DNA of 64,000 bases from a bacterium. GTDB taxonomy: Bacteria > UBA8248. The notes under the pieces were generated by a model. That model ran no database searches and had not been told where the DNA came from. It saw only the letters and a list, made by a program, of their open reading frames with translations. Shown one piece after another: positions 2,321 through 13,319 of the stretch; the stretch's first letter is position 1, and every line of letters starts with the position of its first letter. The stretch spans positions 2,368,001-2,432,000 of the forward strand of contig OZ241875.1 of NCBI GenBank assembly GCA_965203325.1. The letters are read 5' to 3'. The position numbers and the translations under genes were made by a program.

Positions 2321-2350
2321 TTGACAGCCGAACAAATTCCCGTCTATAAC
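2321..2350 (+). promoter_or_regulatory. Sigma70-like promoter TTGACA-N18-TATAAC upstream of the selenoprotein operon
   Basis: Near-consensus hexamers ~85 nt before the ATG at 2436. Confidence 0.55.
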
Positions 2351-2435
2351 TGATCCATCTAAGCATACTGGAAGACCGCGGCTGAACCCCATGGCGCGGA
2401 GTGCGTGTTCCCCTTGGATTGGAGGGAGTTTGTCT

Positions 2436-4046
2436 ATGGGCGAGAACGGTCGAATCGAAATCATCAACCCCATCGCCGCCGTGGCGGATGAGGGAGGTTC
2501 CGGCGAAGGCGCCGTAGTCCAGGGCCTGGACGGGCTCCGCATCGCTTTACTTGATAACTCCATGCCCCACGCGGGCGATTTCCTGAACCACGTCGGCGAA
2601 GCCTTCGCCGAGCGGCACGACGCGAAGCTCCTCGTGCGCAAGAAGGGCTGGGCCGCGCAGGGCGCCGGCCAGGAGACGCTCGACGAGATAGCGTCCAACT
2701 GCGACGTGGCGGTGACCGGCTTCGGGGTCTGAGGGGGCTGCACGTCGTGGAGTGTCCACGACTCGGCAGAGCTTGAAAAACGCGGCGTCCCCACCGTCGT
2801 GGTGGTGGGCACCGGGTTCGAGACGGCGGCGCGCAGCTTCGCCAAGGCCTACAAATCCCCCCATCTCCGCCTTCTCCTCGTCGATGATACCGTGGCCCAC
2901 CAGGGCGGCGACGCCCTGATGCGCATGGCGAAAAACGGCGTCGATACGGTGGCCGCCGAGTGGATGAACACGGCGAACGGGGGAGAGGCCGAAGCCGTCG
3001 CCGATGACCCCATCGAGCGGGTGCTCACGATAGCGGGCGACCCCATAGGTGCGAACGGCGCGCTATTCGATCTGGGGGCGACCGACGGGATGCCCGTCAT
3101 CCCCCCCACCCTGGATATGGTGGAGCGGTTCGTGGCGGCCTCGGGCAGAAAGGGCGATGAGGTAATCGCGCGCCTCATGCCGAGGCTGGCGGATATCACC
3201 GTGGAGCGGATCGCGGCCAACGCCATCATGGCGGGCTGTACGCCCGGCGTCATGCCCATCCTCGTGACGGCGGTGCAGGCCATGGGGGCGGAGGAGTACC
3301 ACGTCAACCACGTCATCACCACGGCGCACACGCTGTTCCCCATCGTCGTGGTGAGCGGCCCCATCGCCCGGGAGGTCGGGATGAGCGACGGGCGCGACTT
3401 GAGCGCAGCGGGCTGGGGGGTGAACGCCTCGGTCGGCCGCGCGATCAAGCTCATCATGTTCAACTGCATCGGCGACCTCGAAAACCGGGGCGCCACTTGC
3501 CAGGGCCATTTCGCCAAGTATTTCGACGCCATCACCGAGAACGTCGAACAGAGCCCTTGGGAGCCGCTCCACGTGGAGAAGGGCTTCGCCGAGTCCGACA
3601 GCGTGGTGACGGTGTTCACCGCCGAACCCCTCCACATGGTGGACGACCACAGCGCGCTCACCGCGCAGGGCATCCTGGGCACCTTCGGCACGGTGGCCGC
3701 CTGCTCCGGCACGCGGCCGCAGTTCGGCCGCTGCGAGATCATGCTCATCTTCGGCCCCACCCACGCGAACAAGGTCGCGGAAGCGGGGTTCGACAAGAAG
3801 CTCGTGCGCGATTACCTCTGCGAGGTCCACCGGATTCCGGTCAACACCTATCCTCCCGAATCGCGCGAGCGCTGGAGCGACTGGAAGCAGATGCTCTACG
3901 GGGTGAACACGATGGAGAACGCGACCCTGCCCATCGTCGAGGAGAGGGAGGACATCACCATCCTGGTGCACGGCGGCGCGGGGCCGAACTCGCTCATGGC
4001 GCCCGGCGCGCTGAACCACCGATCCATAACGCGGAAGATCGGCTAG
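2436..4046 (+). CDS. Probable selenoprotein: UGSC-family (here U-G-G-C) domain fused to a 'TDGxPVIPPT' domain; Sec at TGA 2730-2732
   Basis: ORFs 2391-2732 and 2799-4046 are in the same frame. Readthrough gives VAVTGFGV-U-GGCTSWSVHDSAELEKRGVPTVVV. RBS GGAGGGAG precedes ATG 2436. A hairpin follows the TGA. Confidence 0.85.
2738..2769 (+). promoter_or_regulatory. Putative bacterial SECIS hairpin
   Basis: GTCGTGGA-GTG-TCCACGAC stem-loop (2744-2762), extended by CTGC/GCAG. Loop G lies 20 nt after the UGA. Confidence 0.65.
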
Positions 4047-4049
4047 GCC

Positions 4050-5084
4050 ATGCCCGGGGCGCTTCTGAGCGAACTCTCGCCGGGTGCGGAGGCCGCGCTC
4101 GAAGCCGCGATGGAGAACGGGCCGGGCGACGGCCTTCCTCTCATCCCGCCGACCTGGAGAGCGGTGGACGCCATGCTCGCCTCCACCCAGGAGGGTTCCG
4201 GCCACGTTCTGGGGATGATGGCGCCCGGCATGGTGGACGTGACGGTCGGGGATGCGGCCGTCTGCGCGGTCTTGGCAGGTTGCAAGCCGGCGCACTTCCC
4301 GGTGGTCCTGGCGGCGCTCGAAGCCGTCATGGAGCCCGAGTTCAATTTCCTGGCCATCCAGGCGACCACCGAGCTCGCCTCGCCCCTGGTCATCGTCCAC
4401 GGTCCCGTCGCCGAACGGTTGGGCGTGCACTCGGGCAGCGGGTGCCTGGGGCCGGGCTTCCGGGCGAACGCCACCATCGGCCGCGCCGTCCGCCTGGCCG
4501 CCGTGCGGCTGGGGATGGCGGTGCCCGGCGAGACCGACATGGCCACCTTCGGCCACGGGGGCAAGTTCTCTGCCTGTTTCGCCGAGGCGGCCTGCGGCTG
4601 GGAGCCGCTCCACGCGACGCGGGGGTTCCGCGCGGAGCAAAGCGCGGTGACGGTGGTGGCTGCGGACGCGCCGGTGAACGTGAACGATTACGCGAGCGGA
4701 AGTGCGGAGAGCGTGCTTCGCATGATAACCGCTACGATGTCCTATCCGGGTTCCAACAACGCGCAGGGCGGCGGGGAGGTGTTGGTCGTCATCAGCCCCC
4801 AGCACCTGGGGCTCCTCGCCTCGGGCGGCATGGGCCGTGAGGACGCCCAGCGCGCGCTTTTCGAGGGTGCGCGTGTGCCGCTGACGAGTTTTTCGCCCGA
4901 GATCGCCGAGCGCGTGCGGGGCAGACGGCCGGGGCTTTTCGAGGACTCAAGCCCCGATGCCGTTCCGGTGGCGGACGGGCCGGAGAGCATTCTCATCGCC
5001 GTGGCCGGGGGGCCGGGGAGCCACACGCTTTTCTTCCCGACCTACGGCGAGACCCGGGCGGTGACGAAGGCGGTTCGGGGTTAG
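4050..5084 (+). CDS. Uncharacterised paralogue of the C-terminal domain of the upstream selenoprotein
   Basis: Shares DGLPLIPPT, AVLAGCKP, NATIGRAV, WEPLH, SAVTV and GGPG motifs with 2799-4046; starts 3 nt after its stop. Confidence 0.85.
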   Translation: MPGALLSELSPGAEAALEAAMENGPGDGLPLIPPTWRAVDAMLASTQEGSGHVLGMMAPGMVDVTVGDAAVCAVLAGCKPAHFPVVLAALEAVMEPEFNFLAIQATTELASPLVIVHGPVAERLGVHSGSGCLGPGFRANATIGRAVRLAAVRLGMAVPGETDMATFGHGGKFSACFAEAACGWEPLHATRGFRAEQSAVTVVAADAPVNVNDYASGSAESVLRMITATMSYPGSNNAQGGGEVLVVISPQHLGLLASGGMGREDAQRALFEGARVPLTSFSPEIAERVRGRRPGLFEDSSPDAVPVADGPESILIAVAGGPGSHTLFFPTYGETRAVTKAVRG

Positions 5085-5247
5085 ATGAACGATACGGGGG
5101 AGATTCACGGTTTTGTAGGGACAGGCCTCCGTGCCTGTCCGACGTTCTGACAAAGGCAACCCCGTCGGGCGGGACAACCCCGAGGGGGGTTGTTGAAAAA
5201 GTTTCGATGAATGGGGGTTTGACGCGACTGGGGAAAGAGCAAGATAA

Positions 5248-5398
5248 ACTCCCCCCTTGAGGGGGAGTCGAAGAGGCCGAGCCCTTGGGCGAAGGCCGAT
5301 TCGGTGGGGGGACATGCCACAGAAGAAATCTCCCCCCACCAGCTCGCTTGCGGGCTTTCGCCCTTACCTCGCTGACTCCCCCTCAAGGGGGGAGTTGA
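5248..5398. repeat. Palindromic MITE/REP-like element, copy B
   Basis: Same terminal inverted repeats and inner GGGGGGACATGCCACAGA..TCCCCCCACC hairpin as copy A. Confidence 0.85.
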
Positions 5399-5607
5399 TT
5401 TGAAATTCTCCTCGGTGGGGAGCGTCTTCGTAGGGATCGTATAGCGGCTTTTTCAACGCCCCCCTCAAGGGGGGAGTGGTTGTCGGGTGCTCTCAAGAGG
5501 GGCGTGAAAACCCCAAGCCGCAGAGAGTGGTTATGGAGCAGGACTGATGAACTGACCGGCCAAAAGGTCGTCAACCGAAGCATATCATTCCAGAAAAGGA
5601 GACGCCC

Positions 5608-6993
5608 ATGGCGGACAGGAGCAACGTCGACGTTCTCGTAGTCGGAGCCGGCATGGCCGGTGTGTGCGCTGCCATCGCAGCGGCGCGGGGCGGCGCGCGG
5701 ACGGTCCTCACGGACCGCTACGCCTTCCTGGGGGGCAACGCGACCGCGGGCCTTCTCGGCAACTTCCTCACCTTCCACAACATGAAGGGGGAGCAAATCT
5801 GCGACGGCATCCCCCAGGAGATCGTGGACGAACTCATCAAGCTGGGCGGCGCCTTTCCCGAGGGCCATCTCCACAACGCCTACGGCAACTCCTACTCCGT
5901 GACGCCACAGGACGGCGAAGTGCTCAAGCTCGTGAACCAGAAGCTCTGCCTGGAGGCGGGCGTGGACCTGGTGCTGAACACCTACACCATCGGACCCGTC
6001 ATGGACGGCGACCGGGTGGCCGGCGCGCGCATCGTGAACAAGAGCGGGGAGAGCGAGATACGCGCGAAGGTCGTCATCGACGCGAGCGGCGACGCGGACA
6101 TCGCCGCGCAGGCGGGCGCGCCCTTCCACCTGGGTGACGAGGAGGGGAAGATGATGTCCATCAGCCTCTTCTCGCGTATGGGGAACGTGGACTTAGAGCG
6201 CCACCTCCGGCACGTGAAGGAGAACCCGACGAACTTCATGCTCGGCGAGGACCCCTACATCGGCAAGTCGCGCGAGGAGATAGCCGCAGGCCTTCGCACC
6301 CACAAGGATTACCCCCTCGTGACCGGCTATTACGAGTCGGTCAAGCTCGCCCAGTCGCGCGGCGAGTTCCACCCGAACCGCCAGCGCGTGGTGTTTTCCG
6401 TCACCACCACGCCCGGGGTGGTCACCATCAACTCGACGAGCATGCTCGGCTACAGCGGCGTCGACAACGACGACCTGAACCAGGTCGCCATCGAGGGCCG
6501 CGAGCAGATATTCAAGGTGCGCGATTTCTACCGCAAATACGCCCCCGGTTTCGAGGAGTGCTACGTGATCGATTCGGCCTCGGCCATCGGGGTGCGCGAG
6601 ACGCGCCGCATCATCGGGGAGGAAACCCTCACCGACGATGACTGCATCGATGCGCGCAAGGGGCCGCGCGACATCGGCCAGGGGGCCTACTGCCTCGACG
6701 TCCACCAGCCCACCGGGGTCATCGAGCACAAACACGTCAGGGACGGGGAGGCCTACGGCATCCCCTACGGCGTCATGCTCCCGCAGAAGATAGAGAACTG
6801 CCTCGTGGCGGGCCGGCCCGTCTCGAGCGACCGCTTCGCGAACGGCTCCGTGCGCAACCAGGCCCACATCATGACCATCGGCCAGGCGGCGGGTACGGCG
6901 GCGGCCATGTGCGTGGAGCGCAGGACGACCCCGCGTGAACTGCCGGTGGAGCCGCTCAGGGAAAAACTACGACAGGACGGGGCGGTGGTATGA
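5608..6993 (+). CDS. FAD-dependent oxidoreductase (FAD_oxidored family)
   Basis: VLVVGAGMAG, LGGNATAG, IDASGDADIA, GVRETRRIIGE, YGIPYG, GQAAG. Confidence 0.9.
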   Translation: MADRSNVDVLVVGAGMAGVCAAIAAARGGARTVLTDRYAFLGGNATAGLLGNFLTFHNMKGEQICDGIPQEIVDELIKLGGAFPEGHLHNAYGNSYSVTPQDGEVLKLVNQKLCLEAGVDLVLNTYTIGPVMDGDRVAGARIVNKSGESEIRAKVVIDASGDADIAAQAGAPFHLGDEEGKMMSISLFSRMGNVDLERHLRHVKENPTNFMLGEDPYIGKSREEIAAGLRTHKDYPLVTGYYESVKLAQSRGEFHPNRQRVVFSVTTTPGVVTINSTSMLGYSGVDNDDLNQVAIEGREQIFKVRDFYRKYAPGFEECYVIDSASAIGVRETRRIIGEETLTDDDCIDARKGPRDIGQGAYCLDVHQPTGVIEHKHVRDGEAYGIPYGVMLPQKIENCLVAGRPVSSDRFANGSVRNQAHIMTIGQAAGTAAAMCVERRTTPRELPVEPLREKLRQDGAVV

Positions 6994-7045: not shown

Positions 7046-8317
7046 ATGAAACGTACCGGACGCCGGCTATTCAGCATTATCGCCGTGGCCGCCTTTGTGG
7101 CGGGGCTCGCGCTGCCCGCAGCGGCGGCCAAGAATGTCACCCTCCTCATCCACCCGACCCTGTTCAAGGCGGCGGGGGGTCCCAAGGGCGTGGTGGCTGA
7201 CCTCGAGAAGGAAAAGGGCATCAAGGTGACCGTGGTGACCACCCCCTACGGGAAGATCAAGGACAAGGCGGTGCTCTCCTTCGCAGCCGGAGGCGGGCAG
7301 TTCGACGTGGTGTCCTGGGTGGACGCGTGGGTCAACCCCGAGACCATCGGTTTCCTGGAGCCGCTGGACAACTACATCAAGAACGCGCCCAAGGGCTACG
7401 ACTACGGGGACCTCATCCCCGCCCTCTCGGGCACGACCCGCTTCCCCAAGCCGAAAGGGCCCGCCTACGGCGTTCCCTACCGGACGGGAACCGGAATCGT
7501 CTACTACCGCAAGGACCTCTTCGCGGCGGCCAAGGTCGCGATTCCCAAGACCTGGGACGAGTTCCTCGCCGCGGCCGAGAAGCTGAACCAGCCGGGCAAG
7601 GTCTACGGCGTCGTGCAGCGCGGAAAACCGGGCGTCCACGTGGAGCAGGACTTCCTGCGCTATCTCCACAGTTCGGGCCACGGCGTGCTCTCCGCCGACA
7701 ACAAGACCTGCCTGCTCGACCGCGCCGACTCGATCAAGCTGCTCGAGGTGTTCGGCAAGCCCTTCCGCAGCGGCTGGTCCCCGCCCGACATGCTGGCCTG
7801 GGGACGCGACGAATACCGGAACGCCATGATGCAGGGCCGCGCAGCGATGGGGGTGTACTTCTCCCCCTACTGGGGCCTGATGACCAACCCCAAGAAATCC
7901 AAGACGGCCGACAAGCTGGGCTACTTCCTCGTCCCCACGCTGGACGGCAAGAACCGCGGCGCCACGCTGAACGGCGGCTGGCACCTCGTCATGGACAAGA
8001 AGAGCAAGAACAAGGCGGCGGCGTGGGAGCTCATGATGGCGCTCTCCAACAAGAAGAACCAGCTTCGGGGCGCCCTCAACTGGGCGAACGGCCCCGTGCG
8101 CAGTTCGGTCTACAACAACGCGGAATATCTCAAGAAGTTCCCGGTGGCGAAGGCGTGGCTGACCGCCATCAGCCGGGGCAGCGGCGCGGCGCAGCATCCG
8201 CGCGCGTCCGAGATAAGCGACGTCACCTCGAAGGAGGTCATCAACTACCTGCAGAAGAAGAAGAGCGCGAAGCAGGCCATGGGGGACGCCTGCAAGCAGA
8301 TCAACGCGGTACTGTAG
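7046..8317 (+). CDS. Carbohydrate-type ABC transporter substrate-binding protein
   Basis: Signal peptide, YYRKDLF, PKTWDEF; RBS AGGAGG before ATG 7046. Confidence 0.9.
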   Translation: MKRTGRRLFSIIAVAAFVAGLALPAAAAKNVTLLIHPTLFKAAGGPKGVVADLEKEKGIKVTVVTTPYGKIKDKAVLSFAAGGGQFDVVSWVDAWVNPETIGFLEPLDNYIKNAPKGYDYGDLIPALSGTTRFPKPKGPAYGVPYRTGTGIVYYRKDLFAAAKVAIPKTWDEFLAAAEKLNQPGKVYGVVQRGKPGVHVEQDFLRYLHSSGHGVLSADNKTCLLDRADSIKLLEVFGKPFRSGWSPPDMLAWGRDEYRNAMMQGRAAMGVYFSPYWGLMTNPKKSKTADKLGYFLVPTLDGKNRGATLNGGWHLVMDKKSKNKAAAWELMMALSNKKNQLRGALNWANGPVRSSVYNNAEYLKKFPVAKAWLTAISRGSGAAQHPRASEISDVTSKEVINYLQKKKSAKQAMGDACKQINAVL

Positions 8318-8381
8318 CAGCGGGACGAAAACAAAGGCGTACCGGGGGGTGTTGGAAAAGTCCTCTCCTCAGGGGATAAAA

Positions 8382-8526
8382 GCAACCCCCCTACCCCCCT
8401 TGTCAGGGGTCAAACGCGAGTGATGAACGAGCGTTTGCATAAGCCATTGACGAGAAACACATCGTCTTGCAAAACCTCCCTCTTCGGTCGGTTTTGACCC
8501 CTGACAAGGGGGGTAGGGGGGTTGCT
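8382..8526. repeat. Long inverted repeat (second palindromic repeat family)
   Basis: GCAACCCCCCTACCCCCCTTGTCAGGGGTCAAA ... TTTGACCCCTGACAAGGGGGGTAGGGGGGTTGC. Confidence 0.8.
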
Positions 8527-8711
8527 TTTGTTTCCTGCAAGAGGGGTTGTAGGGGCCGCATATATGCGGCCCTCCTCCTCGGTATGCGGGTCGCATATAT
8601 GCGACCCCTACAATTGGGGCGGCGATGATGCCGCCCCAGACGCGAAGGCGTACCCCGGAGGAGAGGCGGATTGGGGGCGCGTCCGGCGCGGACGCAAGCA
8701 CGGAGAAGATC

Positions 8712-9641
8712 GTGAATACCGGAGCCGTTCAGGATACGGCGCGGCGGGGCGGCCGCGGCTGGCTCACCCCCGCGCGCAAACAGGCGATGGCGCCCTACCT
8801 GCTCATGGCGCCCGCCTTCATCATCCTGGGCGCGATACTGGTCTATCCCTCCATCTACAACATCTATCTCTCGCTGTGGAAATGGCGGCTCACGACGCCC
8901 CATCTCTCCACCTTCGTCGGCTTCGCGAACTACGTCCACCTGCTCTGGGTCGACCCCGACTTCTGGGAGGTGACCCGCTTCAGCCTGGGCTTCACCGTGG
9001 CCACCATCGCCCTGGAATTCATCATCGGGGTGGCGAGCGCGCTGCTGCTCTACGGCCTCGTGCGCGGCAGGCGGCTCATGACGTCCTTTCTCCTCACCCC
9101 CTACATGGTCGCCCCCATCGCGGTGGGCCTCGGCTGGCGGCTCATGTGGGACCGCGACATCGGCATCGTGAACCTCCTCATCACCCTCGTGGGCGTCGCC
9201 AAGGTGAACTGGCTCGCGGAGACCGGCCCCGCCTTCTGGGCCATCGTGATCTGCGAGGTCTGGCGCTCGACGCCCTTCGTCACCATGATCCTCCTGGCGG
9301 GCATCACGGCGCTCCCCAACGAGGTGTTCGAGGCCGCCCACGTGGACGGCGCGAACCGGGTGCAGGTGTTCCGGCGGATCACCTTCCCGCTCATCCTGCC
9401 CCCGCTGGTGGTGGCGCTGCTCTTCCAGACCATCTTCAAGCTGCGGGTGTTCGACATCCCCTACATACTCACAGAAGGAGGCCCCGGCACGTCCACCATG
9501 CCATACGGCCTGTTCATCCAGCGCATTTATTTTCGCTATTTCGACGTGGGCAACGCGGCGGCCACCTCGGTCATCCTCCTCGTGCTGGGCGCGGGGATCG
9601 CGTTTGCCTATCTGCGGCTCATCCAGGACAGGGACGGCTAG
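8712..9641 (+). CDS. Carbohydrate ABC transporter permease (start codon uncertain)
   Basis: FVGFANY, EAA loop EAAHVDGA, multiple TM segments. Confidence 0.9.
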   Translation: MNTGAVQDTARRGGRGWLTPARKQAMAPYLLMAPAFIILGAILVYPSIYNIYLSLWKWRLTTPHLSTFVGFANYVHLLWVDPDFWEVTRFSLGFTVATIALEFIIGVASALLLYGLVRGRRLMTSFLLTPYMVAPIAVGLGWRLMWDRDIGIVNLLITLVGVAKVNWLAETGPAFWAIVICEVWRSTPFVTMILLAGITALPNEVFEAAHVDGANRVQVFRRITFPLILPPLVVALLFQTIFKLRVFDIPYILTEGGPGTSTMPYGLFIQRIYFRYFDVGNAAATSVILLVLGAGIAFAYLRLIQDRDG

Positions 9642-9644
9642 GCC

Positions 9645-10493
9645 ATGGCGCGCGGCGAAGAGCAGATCGGGCCGGGGATTCCCTCCTTCCCGGCGGCGCG
9701 CGGGGCGATGATGGTCCTGCTCGCGTTCAGCCTGTTCCCGATCGTCTGGATCATGCTCACCTCGGTGAAGAACGAGACCGCCATCTTCTCCATCCCGCCC
9801 AAGGTCTTCGTCACCCCGGATTTCTCCTCCTACTGGAAGTTCCTGGGCTTCGGAAACGAATCCGCACTCCGGTTCATCTGGAACAGCACCTTCATCGCGG
9901 TGGTGACGACCTTTCTGACGCTCCTGGTCTCCTCCCTGGCCGCCTACGCGTTCTCGCGCTACCGCTTCCGGGCGTCGAACTACCTGCTCTTCTTCATGCT
10001 GGCGACGCGGCTGCTGCCGCCCGTCACGGCGGTGGTTCCGCTCTATCTTCTGTTCCGCTATCTCCAGATACTCGATACGCGCTTCATCCTGATCCTCATC
10101 TACACCGCCTTGAACATCCCGTTCGGCACCTGGCTGATGAAGGCGTTTTTCGACGGCATCCCGAAAGAACTCGAAGAGGCCGCGGCTTTGGACGGCTGCG
10201 GCGCGCTGCGCACGCTGGCGCGGGTGACCTTCCCCCTCGCGTCATCGGGCATCGCGGCGACCTCCATCTTCGTCTTCCTGCTGGCCTGGAACGAGTTCAT
10301 GTTCGCGTTCATGCTGACGAACGTGTACGCGCGCACCATCCCCGTCCGGCTGGCGGAGACGATGGGCGAGATGCAGGTCTTCTGGCAGGACATGTCCACC
10401 CTGGCGACGCTGATCATGCTGCCCGCCCTGCTGGTGGGCTTTTTCATGCAGCGCTATCTCATCCGCGCCCTGACGGCCGGAGCGGTGAAGTGA
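9645..10493 (+). CDS. Carbohydrate ABC transporter permease
   Basis: ELEEAAALDG, AWNEFMFA. Confidence 0.92.
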   Translation: MARGEEQIGPGIPSFPAARGAMMVLLAFSLFPIVWIMLTSVKNETAIFSIPPKVFVTPDFSSYWKFLGFGNESALRFIWNSTFIAVVTTFLTLLVSSLAAYAFSRYRFRASNYLLFFMLATRLLPPVTAVVPLYLLFRYLQILDTRFILILIYTALNIPFGTWLMKAFFDGIPKELEEAAALDGCGALRTLARVTFPLASSGIAATSIFVFLLAWNEFMFAFMLTNVYARTIPVRLAETMGEMQVFWQDMSTLATLIMLPALLVGFFMQRYLIRALTAGAVK

Positions 10494-10538
10494 TGGATGT
10501 GTTGGGGGTCGAACGCGACCGGGGAGGGAGAATACTTC

Positions 10539-10709
10539 ACTTCCCCCTTGAGGGTCTGGCTTCCCGAGGGGAAAGCCAGACGATGAAGCCGAGCGGTTTG
10601 TGCGAAGGCTGAATCGGTGGGGGGAGATTTATTCTGTGACATGTCCCCCCACCGAATCGCTTGCGGGCTTACGCCCTTAGCTCTTCGACTCCCCCTCAAG
10701 GGGGGAGTG
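10539..10709. repeat. Palindromic MITE/REP-like element, copy C (inner loop inverted, extra hairpin)
   Basis: Flanks match copy A. Inner loop is the reverse complement of that in A/B. Extra TCTGGCTTCCC..GGGAAAGCCAGA hairpin in the left arm. Confidence 0.8.
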
Positions 10710-10868
10710 AAATTCAACGCGCTCCCTCAGGGGACTTTTTCAACAACCCCTTCAAGGGGGGGAGTGGTTGCCGGGCGCTCTGCATGGGAGAAGTAATCCC
10801 GCCCGGCCTGCAAGGCGTTTTTCACCAGCCGCGTTCGGGGCGCGGCACGCGATGATGGAGGAGTCGGT

Positions 10869-11945
10869 TTGGGCACGGTGAGTCTCGAGAACCTGAGCAA
10901 GCACTTCGGCAGCGTGCGCGCCGTGGACGGCATCGACCTCGAAGTCGCCGAGGGGGAGTTCCTCGTCTTGGTGGGGCCGTCGGGCTGCGGGAAGACGACG
11001 ACGCTGCGCATGGTGGCCGGCTTGGAGTTTCCCACCGACGGGGAGATCCGCGTCTCGGGCGAGCGCGTGAACGAGATTCCCGCCAAGGACCGCAACATGG
11101 CCATGGTGTTCCAGAACTACGCCCTCTACCCCCACATGACGGTCTACGAGAACATGGCCTTCGGCCTGCGCGTGCGGCGGTTTTCCGCGGGCGACATCGA
11201 CCGCCGCGTCAAGGAGGCCGCCGCCCTCATGGGGCTCGAAGACCTCCTCCACCGCAAGCCCCGCCAGCTCTCCGGCGGCCAGCGCCAGCGCGTGGCGGTC
11301 TGCCGGGCCATCGTGCGCGACCCGGTCGCTTTTCTTTTCGACGAGCCGCTCAGCAACCTGGACGCCAAGCTCCGCGTCACCGCCCGGGCGGAGATACGCA
11401 AGCTCCAGCGCCGCCTGGGCACGACCTCGGTCTACGTCACCCACGACCAGACCGAGGCGATGACGATGGGAGACCGCATCGTCGTCATGGACTTGGGAAA
11501 AATCCTGCAGGTGGGGCCGCCCATCGATCTCTACGACCGGCCCGTCAACCGCTTCGTGGCGGGGTTTCTGGGCAGCCCGGCCATGAACTTCATCGAGGGC
11601 CGCGCGCAGCGGGCGGAGGGCGGCCTCGAACTCGAAGCGGGCGCCCTGCGCTTCCCGCTGCCTCGGGCGTGCCGGGAGGGAGAGGCCTATGTTCTCGGCT
11701 TCCGCCCCGAGCACCTGGGCTTTCAGGACGCAGGCGCGCGCCCCGTCTCCGCCGAGGGCCGGGTGGAGCTCGTCGAGCCGCTGGGTTCGGACACCTTCGT
11801 CGCCCTCGATATCGACGGAATCGTCCTCACCGTGAAGGAAGAGGGCCATTTCCGCGCCCGGGTGGGCGAGAACATCCGGGTGTTCTTCGACATGGAAAAC
11901 GTCCACCCCTTCGACGGCGCTACCGGCGCGCGTGTGGAGGGGTGA
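10869..11945 (+). CDS. Sugar ABC transporter ATP-binding protein (MalK/UgpC-like)
   Basis: GPSGCGKT, LSGGQRQR, DEPLSNLD, VTHDQ, C-terminal TOBE region. Confidence 0.95.
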   Translation: MGTVSLENLSKHFGSVRAVDGIDLEVAEGEFLVLVGPSGCGKTTTLRMVAGLEFPTDGEIRVSGERVNEIPAKDRNMAMVFQNYALYPHMTVYENMAFGLRVRRFSAGDIDRRVKEAAALMGLEDLLHRKPRQLSGGQRQRVAVCRAIVRDPVAFLFDEPLSNLDAKLRVTARAEIRKLQRRLGTTSVYVTHDQTEAMTMGDRIVVMDLGKILQVGPPIDLYDRPVNRFVAGFLGSPAMNFIEGRAQRAEGGLELEAGALRFPLPRACREGEAYVLGFRPEHLGFQDAGARPVSAEGRVELVEPLGSDTFVALDIDGIVLTVKEEGHFRARVGENIRVFFDMENVHPFDGATGARVEG

Positions 11946-12110: not shown

Positions 12111-12350
12111 TTCCGCACGCGCACCCTCGCCGACGAATTTCTGAAAAATATGATTAATCATTGTCATGAACCCGGTGTCGGCGCGATAGTATGATTGGCT
12201 CCGTTTGTCTACGATAACATGTTGTTTATAATATTATATTTCTGTTATTCCGTACCCAGCTACCCCTTCCGTTTTCGCCAAATATCTGCTTGAATAGCCC
12301 CCGGTATGATGCCGCGCGTATGCGATTTGATTACAGATTCGGGAGGCGGG

Positions 12351-13319
12351 ATGCCGAAGCGAAGCGATCTGAAACTCACGAAGCGCACCGTCGACGCCCT
12401 GGAAGTGGATTCTAAAAACGCTCTTTTCTGGGACCGGGAGCTGGCGGGCTTCGGGGTGCGCGTCCACGCCACGGGCCGGAAGACCTGGGTGGTGCAGTCC
12501 CGGGGTCCCGGGGGTCCCAAGCGTCTGACGCTCGGCCGTCACGGGGAGTTGCCCGTCGACGAGGCCAGGAAACAGGCCGCCCACATCATCGCTCGCATCA
12601 AGGCGGGCGAGGAGGCGGTGCCCGAACCGATGAAGCCTGCGGGAGGCCCCACGGTAAATGAGGTGTGCGCGCGCTATCTCACGGAATACGTCTCCGTGCG
12701 GTGCAAGCCGGGCACCGCCGCGCTCTACCGCTCGGTGATCGACCGCCACGTCCTGCCCGCCCTGGGCAAGCTGCCGCTGGCTGCGCTCTCGCGCGCACAG
12801 GTGGCAGAATTCCATGAGAGTCTTTATGAGACGCCCGCGGTGGCGGCCATCCGGCTTCTGGCGCTTACCGGGTGCCGCAGGAGCGAGGTGCTCGGGCTGC
12901 GCCGCGAGGACGTGGCGCTCGAAGCGGCCGAACTCAGGCTGCCCGATTCCAAGACGGGCGCGCGGGCGGTCCCGCTCCCGCCGCAGGCGGTCGAGCTTCT
13001 CAGAAGTCTCCTGAGGGCCCACGACGGCCCCTGGGTCATGCCGGGCAGGAAGCCGGGGACGCGCTTAAGGAACATCGACGAGGCATGGCGAATGATAAGG
13101 GAGCACGCGGGCCTGGAGGACGTAAGGCTGCACGACCTGCGCCATTCCTGGACCTCGCGGGCGCTTGCGCTCGGCGAGGCGCTGCCCGTGATCGGGAAGC
13201 TCCTGGGCCACAGCAAGATGGAGACGACGGCGCGCTACGCGCACCTCGCGCGCGATTCGGCGCAGGAGGCGGCCGAGCGGGTCGCGCAGAGCATCGAGGC
13301 GGACATGCTGCAAGGATAG
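12351..13319 (+). mobile_element. Tyrosine recombinase/integrase with arm-type N-terminal domain; probable in-frame internal deletion near 12835
   Basis: WDRELAGFGVRV arm domain. Catalytic R (GCRRSE), K (DSKTG), HDLRH, LGH and Y (RYAH) all present. The core-binding domain runs straight into the catalytic helix (ETPAV|AAIRLL). Confidence 0.85.

Follow-up and report, generated by a model that had tools for sequence, protein, structure and literature searches.

A fused selenoprotein gene of the UGSC family and a partner gene immediately behind it were identified in the 64,000 nt stretch of contig OZ241875.1 analysed here (positions 2,368,001 to 2,432,000 of the forward strand; GTDB lineage UBA8248, assembly GCA_965203325.1), which is referred to below as the window. 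The first gene joins a UGSC domain, in which an in-frame TGA is read as selenocysteine (Sec), to a divergent copy (Xa) of a partner domain known as 'Unknown_1', and the second encodes a canonical stand-alone copy (Xb) of the same domain. At a probability that we put at roughly 55%, the two products together are a thioredoxin-linked, selenol-dependent two-chain reductase.

The open reading frame (ORF) listing cuts the first gene at TGA 2730-2732 into two ORFs, 2391-2732 and 2799-4046. With the TGA read as U, one frame is open through TAG 4044-4046 and reads ...TGFGV-U-GGC-TSWSVHDSAELEKRGVPTV..., and the 536 aa readthrough product given in a preliminary description of this DNA is confirmed by the open frame and by the conserved start codon. 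Alignment of the window with the upstream regions of ten related loci showed that ATG 2436 is the conserved start and that ATG 2391 is not conserved; the ribosome-binding site that had been pointed out is likewise conserved (Table 1). The promoter claimed for the gene fared less evenly. Both hexamers are present and retained in relatives, and homology between genomes starts about ten bases 5′ of TTGACA (2321-2326), but a consensus promoter scanner listed no promoter at 2321-2350 because the second hexamer, TATAAC, has no T at position 6. The 85 nt that separate the start codon from the promoter-like boxes (2351-2435; GCGCGGAGTGCGTGTTCCCC...) are well conserved among relatives and are possibly a regulatory leader; no Rfam family matched it at the gathering score.

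Table 1. Features of the UGSC/partner locus and of the genes downstream, with positions counted from the first letter of the window.
Feature	Position	Strand	Remarks
Promoter-like TTGACA (2321-2326), 18 nt spacer, TATAAC (2345-2350)	2321..2350	+	Both hexamers kept in relatives
Ribosome-binding site GGAGGG	2421..2426	+	9 nt 5′ of ATG 2436; GGAG and ATG invariant in 11/11 aligned sequences
UGSC::Xa fusion selenoprotein gene	2436..4046	+	536 aa; Sec is residue 99 from ATG 2436 (U114 in P0001 numbering)
UGSC domain (Pfam PF24696)	2457..2963	+	130.1 bits, residues 23-191 of P0001
In-frame TGA read as selenocysteine, motif UGGC	2730..2732	+	Conservation in relatives and distant homologues; Sec machinery in genome
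SECIS-type hairpin, 8 bp stem, GUG loop	2744..2762	+	Comparative evidence
Xa, divergent copy of 'Unknown_1' partner domain (TDGMPVIPPT, MAGC, NASVGRA, PWEPLH)	3075..4043	+	
Xb, stand-alone canonical partner-domain copy, 344 aa	4050..5084	+	3 nt after fusion stop (TAG 4044-4046)
FAD-dependent oxidoreductase (PF12831)	5608..6993	+	Syntenic neighbour; possible functional link
ABC transporter, sugar-type (SBP_bac_1, two permeases, MalK-type ATPase)	7046..11945	+	Syntenic neighbour; possible functional link

The source genome, a single contig of 4.39 Mb, contains selA (571.4 bits), selB (392.8 bits), selD (333.2 bits) and tRNA-Sec (75.9 bits), all scoring over the curated cut-offs. Its selD gene (C1:1726679-1727641, L011) itself has one in-frame TGA. 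Two sets of homologues bear on the codon in the window. The first consists of 17 closely related loci (78-98% protein identity), of which 16 span the Sec site; all 16 have TGA there, and the sequences on either side stay in frame and are constrained at the protein level. The second consists of 79 metagenome loci retrieved with the partner domain alone (33-49% identity), and the Sec column of the 67 UGSC domains found in these distant loci is TGA in 62 and Cys in three, the other two being cut by contig ends. This marked bias towards Sec suggests a requirement for selenium chemistry.

A stem of 8 bp with a GTG loop had been described behind the UGA, and it is indeed located 11 nt after this codon (GUCGUGGA / UCCACGAC). 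The hairpin of the Sec insertion sequence (SECIS) type is identical in the 16 close relatives apart from one loop change (GUG to GUA in L038), and third codon positions just downstream of the stem vary among the same sequences. In an ungapped alignment of the window with 61 distant TGA sites, 91.2% of cells in the stem are paired, against at most 48.8% when partner columns are slid. Changes on both sides occur in 16 cells, a number matched by none of 500 shuffles, and compensatory changes are seen in four of the eight pairs; some of them alter the encoded residues (W to C with V to M) yet preserve pairing. The case for the hairpin rests on this comparison, since the folding energy of the single 67 nt sequence is indistinguishable from that of shuffles (z -0.77). 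A scan of the whole window with Rfam at gathering scores returned a tRNA-Ser only, and no curated bacterial SECIS model matched.

A reading of the TGA as a real stop, a pseudogene lesion or an error of sequencing, with two separate genes, would agree with the splitting of this and related records by gene callers and with the many database homologues that begin at MEKRGVPT just past the TGA, but the recurrence of the codon in 16 of 16 independent assemblies with constrained flanks, the TGA or Cys found in all 65 readable distant domains, and the covarying hairpin in a genome with complete Sec machinery exclude this reading as far as sequence data can. TGA 2730-2732 is, on the same sequence evidence, a genuine Sec codon of a UGSC-family gene, as had been claimed, and the gene qualifies as a bacterial selenoprotein gene.

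The N-terminal domain matches PF24696 over almost the entire profile (positions 1-170 of 172) at a score far above the cut-off of 25 bits, and UGGC occupies the conserved Sec/Cys column at U114. Its score against the NCBIfam equivalog NF041046 is 100.6 bits, under the cut-off of 125, and the domain is therefore filed under the Pfam family and not as the NCBIfam equivalog. With the UGSC family of Zhang and Gladyshev (2007/2008) it shares U-x-x-C at the family Sec column, the SWSVHD...ELEKRGVPT block downstream and the same SECIS hairpin. It differs in having UGGC in place of UGSC, a form found in two of the 67 distant domains, and in being fused, not free-standing. The model of the fusion has a mean predicted local distance difference test score (pLDDT) of 84.5 and a predicted template-modelling score (pTM) of 0.86, and places Sec114 between a strand (106-112) and a helix (115-130). 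A thioredoxin-like fold has been suggested for UGSC (2008; PMC2398784), but the Foldseek rows spanning about 160-200 columns of the predicted structure are flavodoxin-like (WrbA, flavodoxin and the flavodoxin domain of flavodiiron proteins; template-modelling (TM) score on target 0.25-0.59), and thioredoxin is absent from the rows listed, all of which are weak matches.

Seven full-length fused homologues from the databases were aligned, of which two have CGSC and five have DSG or DMG, with neither Cys nor Sec at the motif. The UGSC-like domain is retained in five fused homologues of about 570-590 aa (P0052, P0059, P0115, P0119 and P0122) in which DSG/DMG replaces U/C-G-S-C, giving a non-redox version.

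The partner domain of Xa and Xb belongs to no Pfam or NCBIfam family, and no Pfam model matched it even at E<=10. Xb (344 aa) and fusion residues 229-550 share 28% identity (E 9e-44), in agreement with the earlier claim that the C-terminal domain recurs as a separate gene 3 nt downstream. A profile search of the PDB sequences gave no match at E<=1. In the PDB, Foldseek matched the domain to class I fumarate hydratase and cyanuric acid hydrolase (E 4.9e-4 to 1e-2, TM scores of about 0.2, root-mean-square deviation above 11), and the best VIA-align wide match (Z 5.6) spans residues 177-331 of Xb only. Kinship with these two families was rejected, as hhalign gave probabilities of 0.3% for the class I fumarase and 1.3% for the AtzD-like protein of the same genome. 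In the ESM Atlas only unannotated clusters were returned, under automatic names such as 'thiol-disulfide oxidoreductase' and 'thioredoxin family'. The domain is nevertheless abundant: 8165 cluster representatives match its profile at E<=0.001, and 2620 of them do so at E<=1e-30.

Fusion of the two domains is not new, although the system had been presented as a hidden one. It was published in 2008, on computational evidence, as the 'UGSC/Unknown_1' fusion of Zhang and Gladyshev (PLoS Genet, PMC2398784), and Fig. S1A of that paper displays the block AVNGVMAGCRPEYMPIL, with the AxMAGC motif and its Cys highlighted. The corresponding block in the window is AANAIMAGCTPGVMPIL, and no stop separates the domains, so the gene in the window is a UGSC/Unknown_1 fusion, which matches the published one in architecture and in the conserved Cys of an A-[VI]-MAGC-x-P-x-x-M/L-P block. 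It differs in that the fused copy is a divergent paralogue and that the canonical copy follows as a separate gene, whose product probably dimerises with it; the parts of PMC2398784 that present the fusion describe no second subunit. The partner domain is also fused to thioredoxin-fold domains of the Redoxin/AhpC-TSA type (PF08534/PF00578), and the five such proteins inspected have a CPTC motif and no signal peptide, as expected of cytoplasmic proteins. This arrangement, in which a CPTC domain replaces UGSC, resembles the fusions of thiol-dependent reductases with thioredoxin-fold domains (MsrA/B-Trx and peroxiredoxin/TlpA-type), where a catalytic domain is provided with a dedicated reductant, but the catalytic domain here is outside any described family.

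That the two paralogous domains form a heteromer, as first proposed, is supported by structure prediction. The complex of Xa (residues 205-551) with Xb gave an interaction prediction score from aligned errors (ipSAE) of 0.83 (0.84, 0.83 and 0.83 in separate runs), and the best of three controls gave 0.00; in a benchmark, the mark used for this score was attained by 116 of 157 solved complexes and by two of 215 mismatched pairs. Between runs, 84% or more of the contacts agree, the partner has a pLDDT of 80 or higher, and the model of Xb alone has a pLDDT of 92.5 and a pTM of 0.92. The predicted interface comprises residues 231-237, 280-282, 345-350 and 527-533 of chain 1 and residues 26-33, 76-77, 129-145 and 319-325 of chain 2. 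In both chains these are the conserved motifs of the family (the DGxPxIP loop, MAG(C), NAxxGR and GGxGxH), which suggests that the active site or sites probably lie between two protomers.

The two copies are not equally conserved. Conservation across 47 family members reaches 90% or more in 63 columns, of which Xb retains 54 and Xa 47. Several polar positions are gone from Xa (N to H, T to A, D in a deleted loop, N to M and N to R), and Xb for its part lacks a few that Xa has kept. The predicted dimer would therefore be asymmetric. The 3 nt gap between the genes is maintained in relatives, and homologues of Xa (62-66% identity) and Xb (60-72%) apparently co-occur in four cases, which hints that the pair is older than the genus. 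Six further proteins (P0361, P0378, P0379, P0429, P0438 and P0482) contain two or three partner-domain matches within a single chain of about 710-740 aa, an architecture that fits a dimeric working unit.

Coupling of UGSC to the partner domain is a general property of the family. UGSC adjoins the partner in 65 of the 79 distant loci, and the UGSC domains there are fused in frame (22), separate and upstream (37) or downstream (8). An adjacent second partner copy is present in only three (L054, L085 and L105), so that the paralogous pair is not a general feature; in L079 a second copy lies 2.5 kb away, and L070 and L073 each contain two whole modules. Within the phylum, 43 of 51 genomes contain PF24696, as do 41 of 41 further genomes from the family to which the window belongs, with one TGA in every match listed. 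A six-frame scan of the source genome with hidden Markov models detected eight UGSC domains, each with one TGA and each adjoining a partner domain, and 15 partner domains in all. The copy in the window is the only true fusion among the eight and the only one with UGGC; six others have UGSC and one UGSS.

Enoyl-CoA hydratases, acyl-CoA dehydrogenases, a family III CoA-transferase and a molybdenum hydroxylase neighbour the other modules of the genome, together with parts of peptide ATP-binding cassette (ABC) and tripartite ATP-independent periplasmic (TRAP) transporters, an HpcH aldolase and a luciferase-like oxygenase. One of these loci, L153 (C1:2772659-2779991), has four tandem partner genes followed by a molybdenum hydroxylase, a UGSC gene, two enoyl-CoA hydratases and an acyl-CoA dehydrogenase. 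Neighbours of the distant loci were surveyed for 250 of 276 proteins, with no background frequencies for comparison. TctC receptors recur in seven loci, CoA-transferases in four, and MmgE/PrpD and Amidohydro_2 proteins in three each; enoyl-CoA hydratases and acyl-CoA dehydrogenases also recur beside modules. At most, such neighbours suggest a catabolic setting. Genes for pyridine-nucleotide disulfide oxidoreductases (Pyr_redox_2) lie directly upstream of UGSC in L047, L085 and L105 and nearby in L078. In L078 and L100 selB adjoins the UGSC/partner module, and L078 also contains selA in addition to its Pyr_redox_2 gene.

From these associations we infer which way the electrons flow, a reductase chemistry and the kind of substrate. 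Chain 1 would consist of the UGSC domain, with Sec-Gly-Gly-Cys at the start of a helix, followed by divergent Xa, and chain 2 of canonical Xb. Xa and Xb would pair through their conserved motifs and bind the substrate at the dimer interface, with the UGSC domain serving as a tethered redox arm. The selenol of this domain would attack either the substrate or a partner cysteine in oxidised form, the vicinal Cys would resolve the adduct to a selenenyl-sulfide, and thioredoxin or a flavoprotein resembling thioredoxin reductase would reduce this again. Overall, a small compound, either imported or catabolic and probably an organic acid or a CoA ester, would be reduced or reductively cleaved.

Several observations weigh against this reductase. 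The partner domain has no confident structural relative, so that fusions and neighbours are the only guide to its chemistry. In three of 18 aligned homologues Ala replaces the Cys of MAGC, and the DSG/DMG forms show that redox activity is not a constant property of the N-terminal domain. In six distant loci the partner domain stands by itself with 700 nt or more of free sequence on either side (in eight more it is alone at a contig edge), and three partner genes of the source genome stand alone with no adjacent UGSC; together with the Cys-less forms, these argue that the partner domain can work otherwise. Neighbours are heterogeneous, with no constant metabolic partner in the survey described above. 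A predicted heterodimer between paralogues of a probable homodimer can pass by likeness. UGSC was called 'a selenoprotein of unknown function' in a 2007 paper that names Hyphomonas neptunium as a carrier (PMC1976440), and is listed with no role in the relevant portions of reviews from 2022 (PMC9312934) and 2026 (PMC13188914).

An unlikely but credible alternative is a housekeeping reductase for repair or detoxification. Here the partner domain would reduce an oxidised species (a sulfoxide, a persulfide, a peroxide-type compound or a damaged cofactor) in the manner of Msr or peroxiredoxin, and UGSC or a fused thioredoxin-fold domain would recycle the partner cysteine with no involvement of a catabolic pathway. 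The fusions to Redoxin/AhpC-TSA-type domains are consistent with this, as are the thiol-redox names assigned automatically in the Atlas, the differences in neighbours between loci, and the housekeeping genes found beside some modules (MreB/MreC in L092 and L095; ClpB, an IMPDH-like gene and DnaE in L091 and L094). However, the partner domain has no similarity to the catalytic domains of Msr or Prx, and the eight UGSC and 15 partner domains of a single genome, many of them beside transporters or enzymes of CoA esters, resemble a diversification by substrate more than a single repair task.

It had also been proposed that the enzyme acts on a compound that is imported by the ABC transporter downstream and oxidised by the flavin adenine dinucleotide (FAD)-dependent oxidoreductase (Table 1). 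All 14 relatives that extend past Xb have the order UGSC::Xa, Xb, FAD oxidoreductase, binding protein, permeases and ATPase, and their upstream flanks differ. The spacer between Xb and the oxidoreductase is just 42-92 nt in L031, L035 and L037, 42 nt (L035) being the shortest, and other family members adjoin ABC binding proteins or permeases (L050 and L111). All 14 are close relatives, however, so their synteny is weak evidence, and the spacer reaches about 1970 nt in L033 and 523 nt in the window, where repeat elements separate the two units. Among the scanned neighbours of the distant loci, PF12831 occurs solely as a weak N-terminal side-match (L047 and L065), and the seven other UGSC modules of the genome have different neighbours. 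In no distant locus does this combination recur. A link between these genes and the selenoprotein pair is possible but unsupported, and we regard it as doubtful.

The repeats in the spacer are part of a larger set. A 19 nt palindrome, CTCCCCCTCAAGGGGGGAG, occurs six times in intergenic positions of the window where none is expected by chance (982-1000, 1110-1128, 5249-5267, 5376-5394, 5458-5476 and 10689-10707). At 5244-5399, within the variable spacer, it contributes to 33 nt inverted arms 90 nt apart, resembling a repetitive extragenic palindromic (REP) element or a miniature transposon.

Improbable, on balance, is a non-reductive enzyme (an isomerase, hydratase, lyase or transferase) with Sec or Cys as a catalytic nucleophile or a redox switch, and with thioredoxin-type partners that only keep it reduced or regulate it. 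Weak echoes of the folds of class I fumarate hydratase and of YjgF/chorismate-mutase-like modules, the neighbourhoods rich in enoyl-CoA hydratases and MmgE/PrpD proteins, and the fused forms without any Cys in the UGSC-like domain would agree with such an enzyme. However, these fold matches do not rise above noise (TM about 0.2, Z at most 5.6, with the hhalign probabilities given above), and the near-obligate pairing with U-x-x-C or C-x-x-C modules, like the flavoprotein disulfide reductases nearby, fits a stoichiometric supply of electrons better.

Selenoprotein B (GrdB/PrdB) was the known system with which the Sec site had first been compared. GrdB and PrdB have roles in glycine/sarcosine/betaine and D-proline reductases, in which they depend on partner subunits and are reduced by the thioredoxin system. 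The reductase proposed here would parallel them in its strong preference for Sec, in dependence on a partner subunit and in reduction by the thioredoxin system, an analogy of logic only. The U-x-x-C setting of Sec is also alike, judging from the motif entered in Table 2 of PMC2398784. The partner domain here is unrelated to known families, and the resemblance does not extend to homology. No match of the UGSC domain to Pfam GRDB (PF07355) was obtained at E<=10, and hhalign gave probabilities of 0.45% against a GRDB protein of the same genome and 0.52% (E 0.11) against a profile of 34 GRDB sequences, neither of them significant. The non-significant alignment sets the UGSC Sec column on a T-x-G-N-G site and ELEKRGVP on an e-L-k-x-x-G-V block in the C-terminal part of GRDB. 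A GrdE/PrdA-type proprotein or a selenoprotein A was not among the Pfam matches of nine neighbouring genes, no dedicated search for them being made. Elsewhere in the source genome, L162 (C1:522903-523937) encodes a full-length GRDB-family protein without an in-frame stop, i.e. a Cys form, and three short ORFs of about 175-205 aa (at 3076038, 2665631 and 2498551) match only the C-terminal third of the GRDB model.

A tRNA-Ser(GGA) gene lies just 5′ of the cassette at 2102-2194, and a tyrosine-integrase gene is located just past the ABC transporter at 12306-13319. The upstream flank is variable among relatives and includes a fragment of an integrase in L032. The cassette may sit in a variable or mobile region. 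Metatranscriptome contigs from four runs in three studies, 90-97% alike, overlap parts of both genes; one of 182 nt covers 2677-2858 including the TGA, and two of 719 and 225 nt bridge the 4046/4050 junction. As these RNA-library contigs come from relatives, they are a weak hint and prove neither transcription nor a single transcript.

UGSC was among the most abundant predicted selenoproteins of the ocean survey (GOS), with 255 Sec forms and 21 Cys homologues counted in PMC2398784. Particular to the present locus are the UGGC motif, the fusion to a divergent paralogue together with a canonical predicted second subunit, and the lineage with its eight UGSC and 15 partner domains. By itself the locus does not reveal the reaction. 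It is a small system suited to experiments, with a fused selenoprotein and a partner predicted to bind it, for a partner family of 8165 cluster representatives with neither a matching Pfam or NCBIfam model nor a solved relative in the searches made, and the neighbours of the eight parallel modules in the genome could guide the search for substrates. More speculatively, UGSC and its partner might constitute a widespread class of enzymes, with a fold unseen in solved structures and a tethered selenol that reductively cleaves small organic compounds non-fermentatively, and might be an aerobic or marine equivalent of the Stickland-type selenoprotein B reductases. Within this Nitrospinota lineage the class might then have radiated to eight selenoproteins and 15 partner domains, including obligate heterodimers of canonical and divergent copies, each tuned to a different imported substrate.

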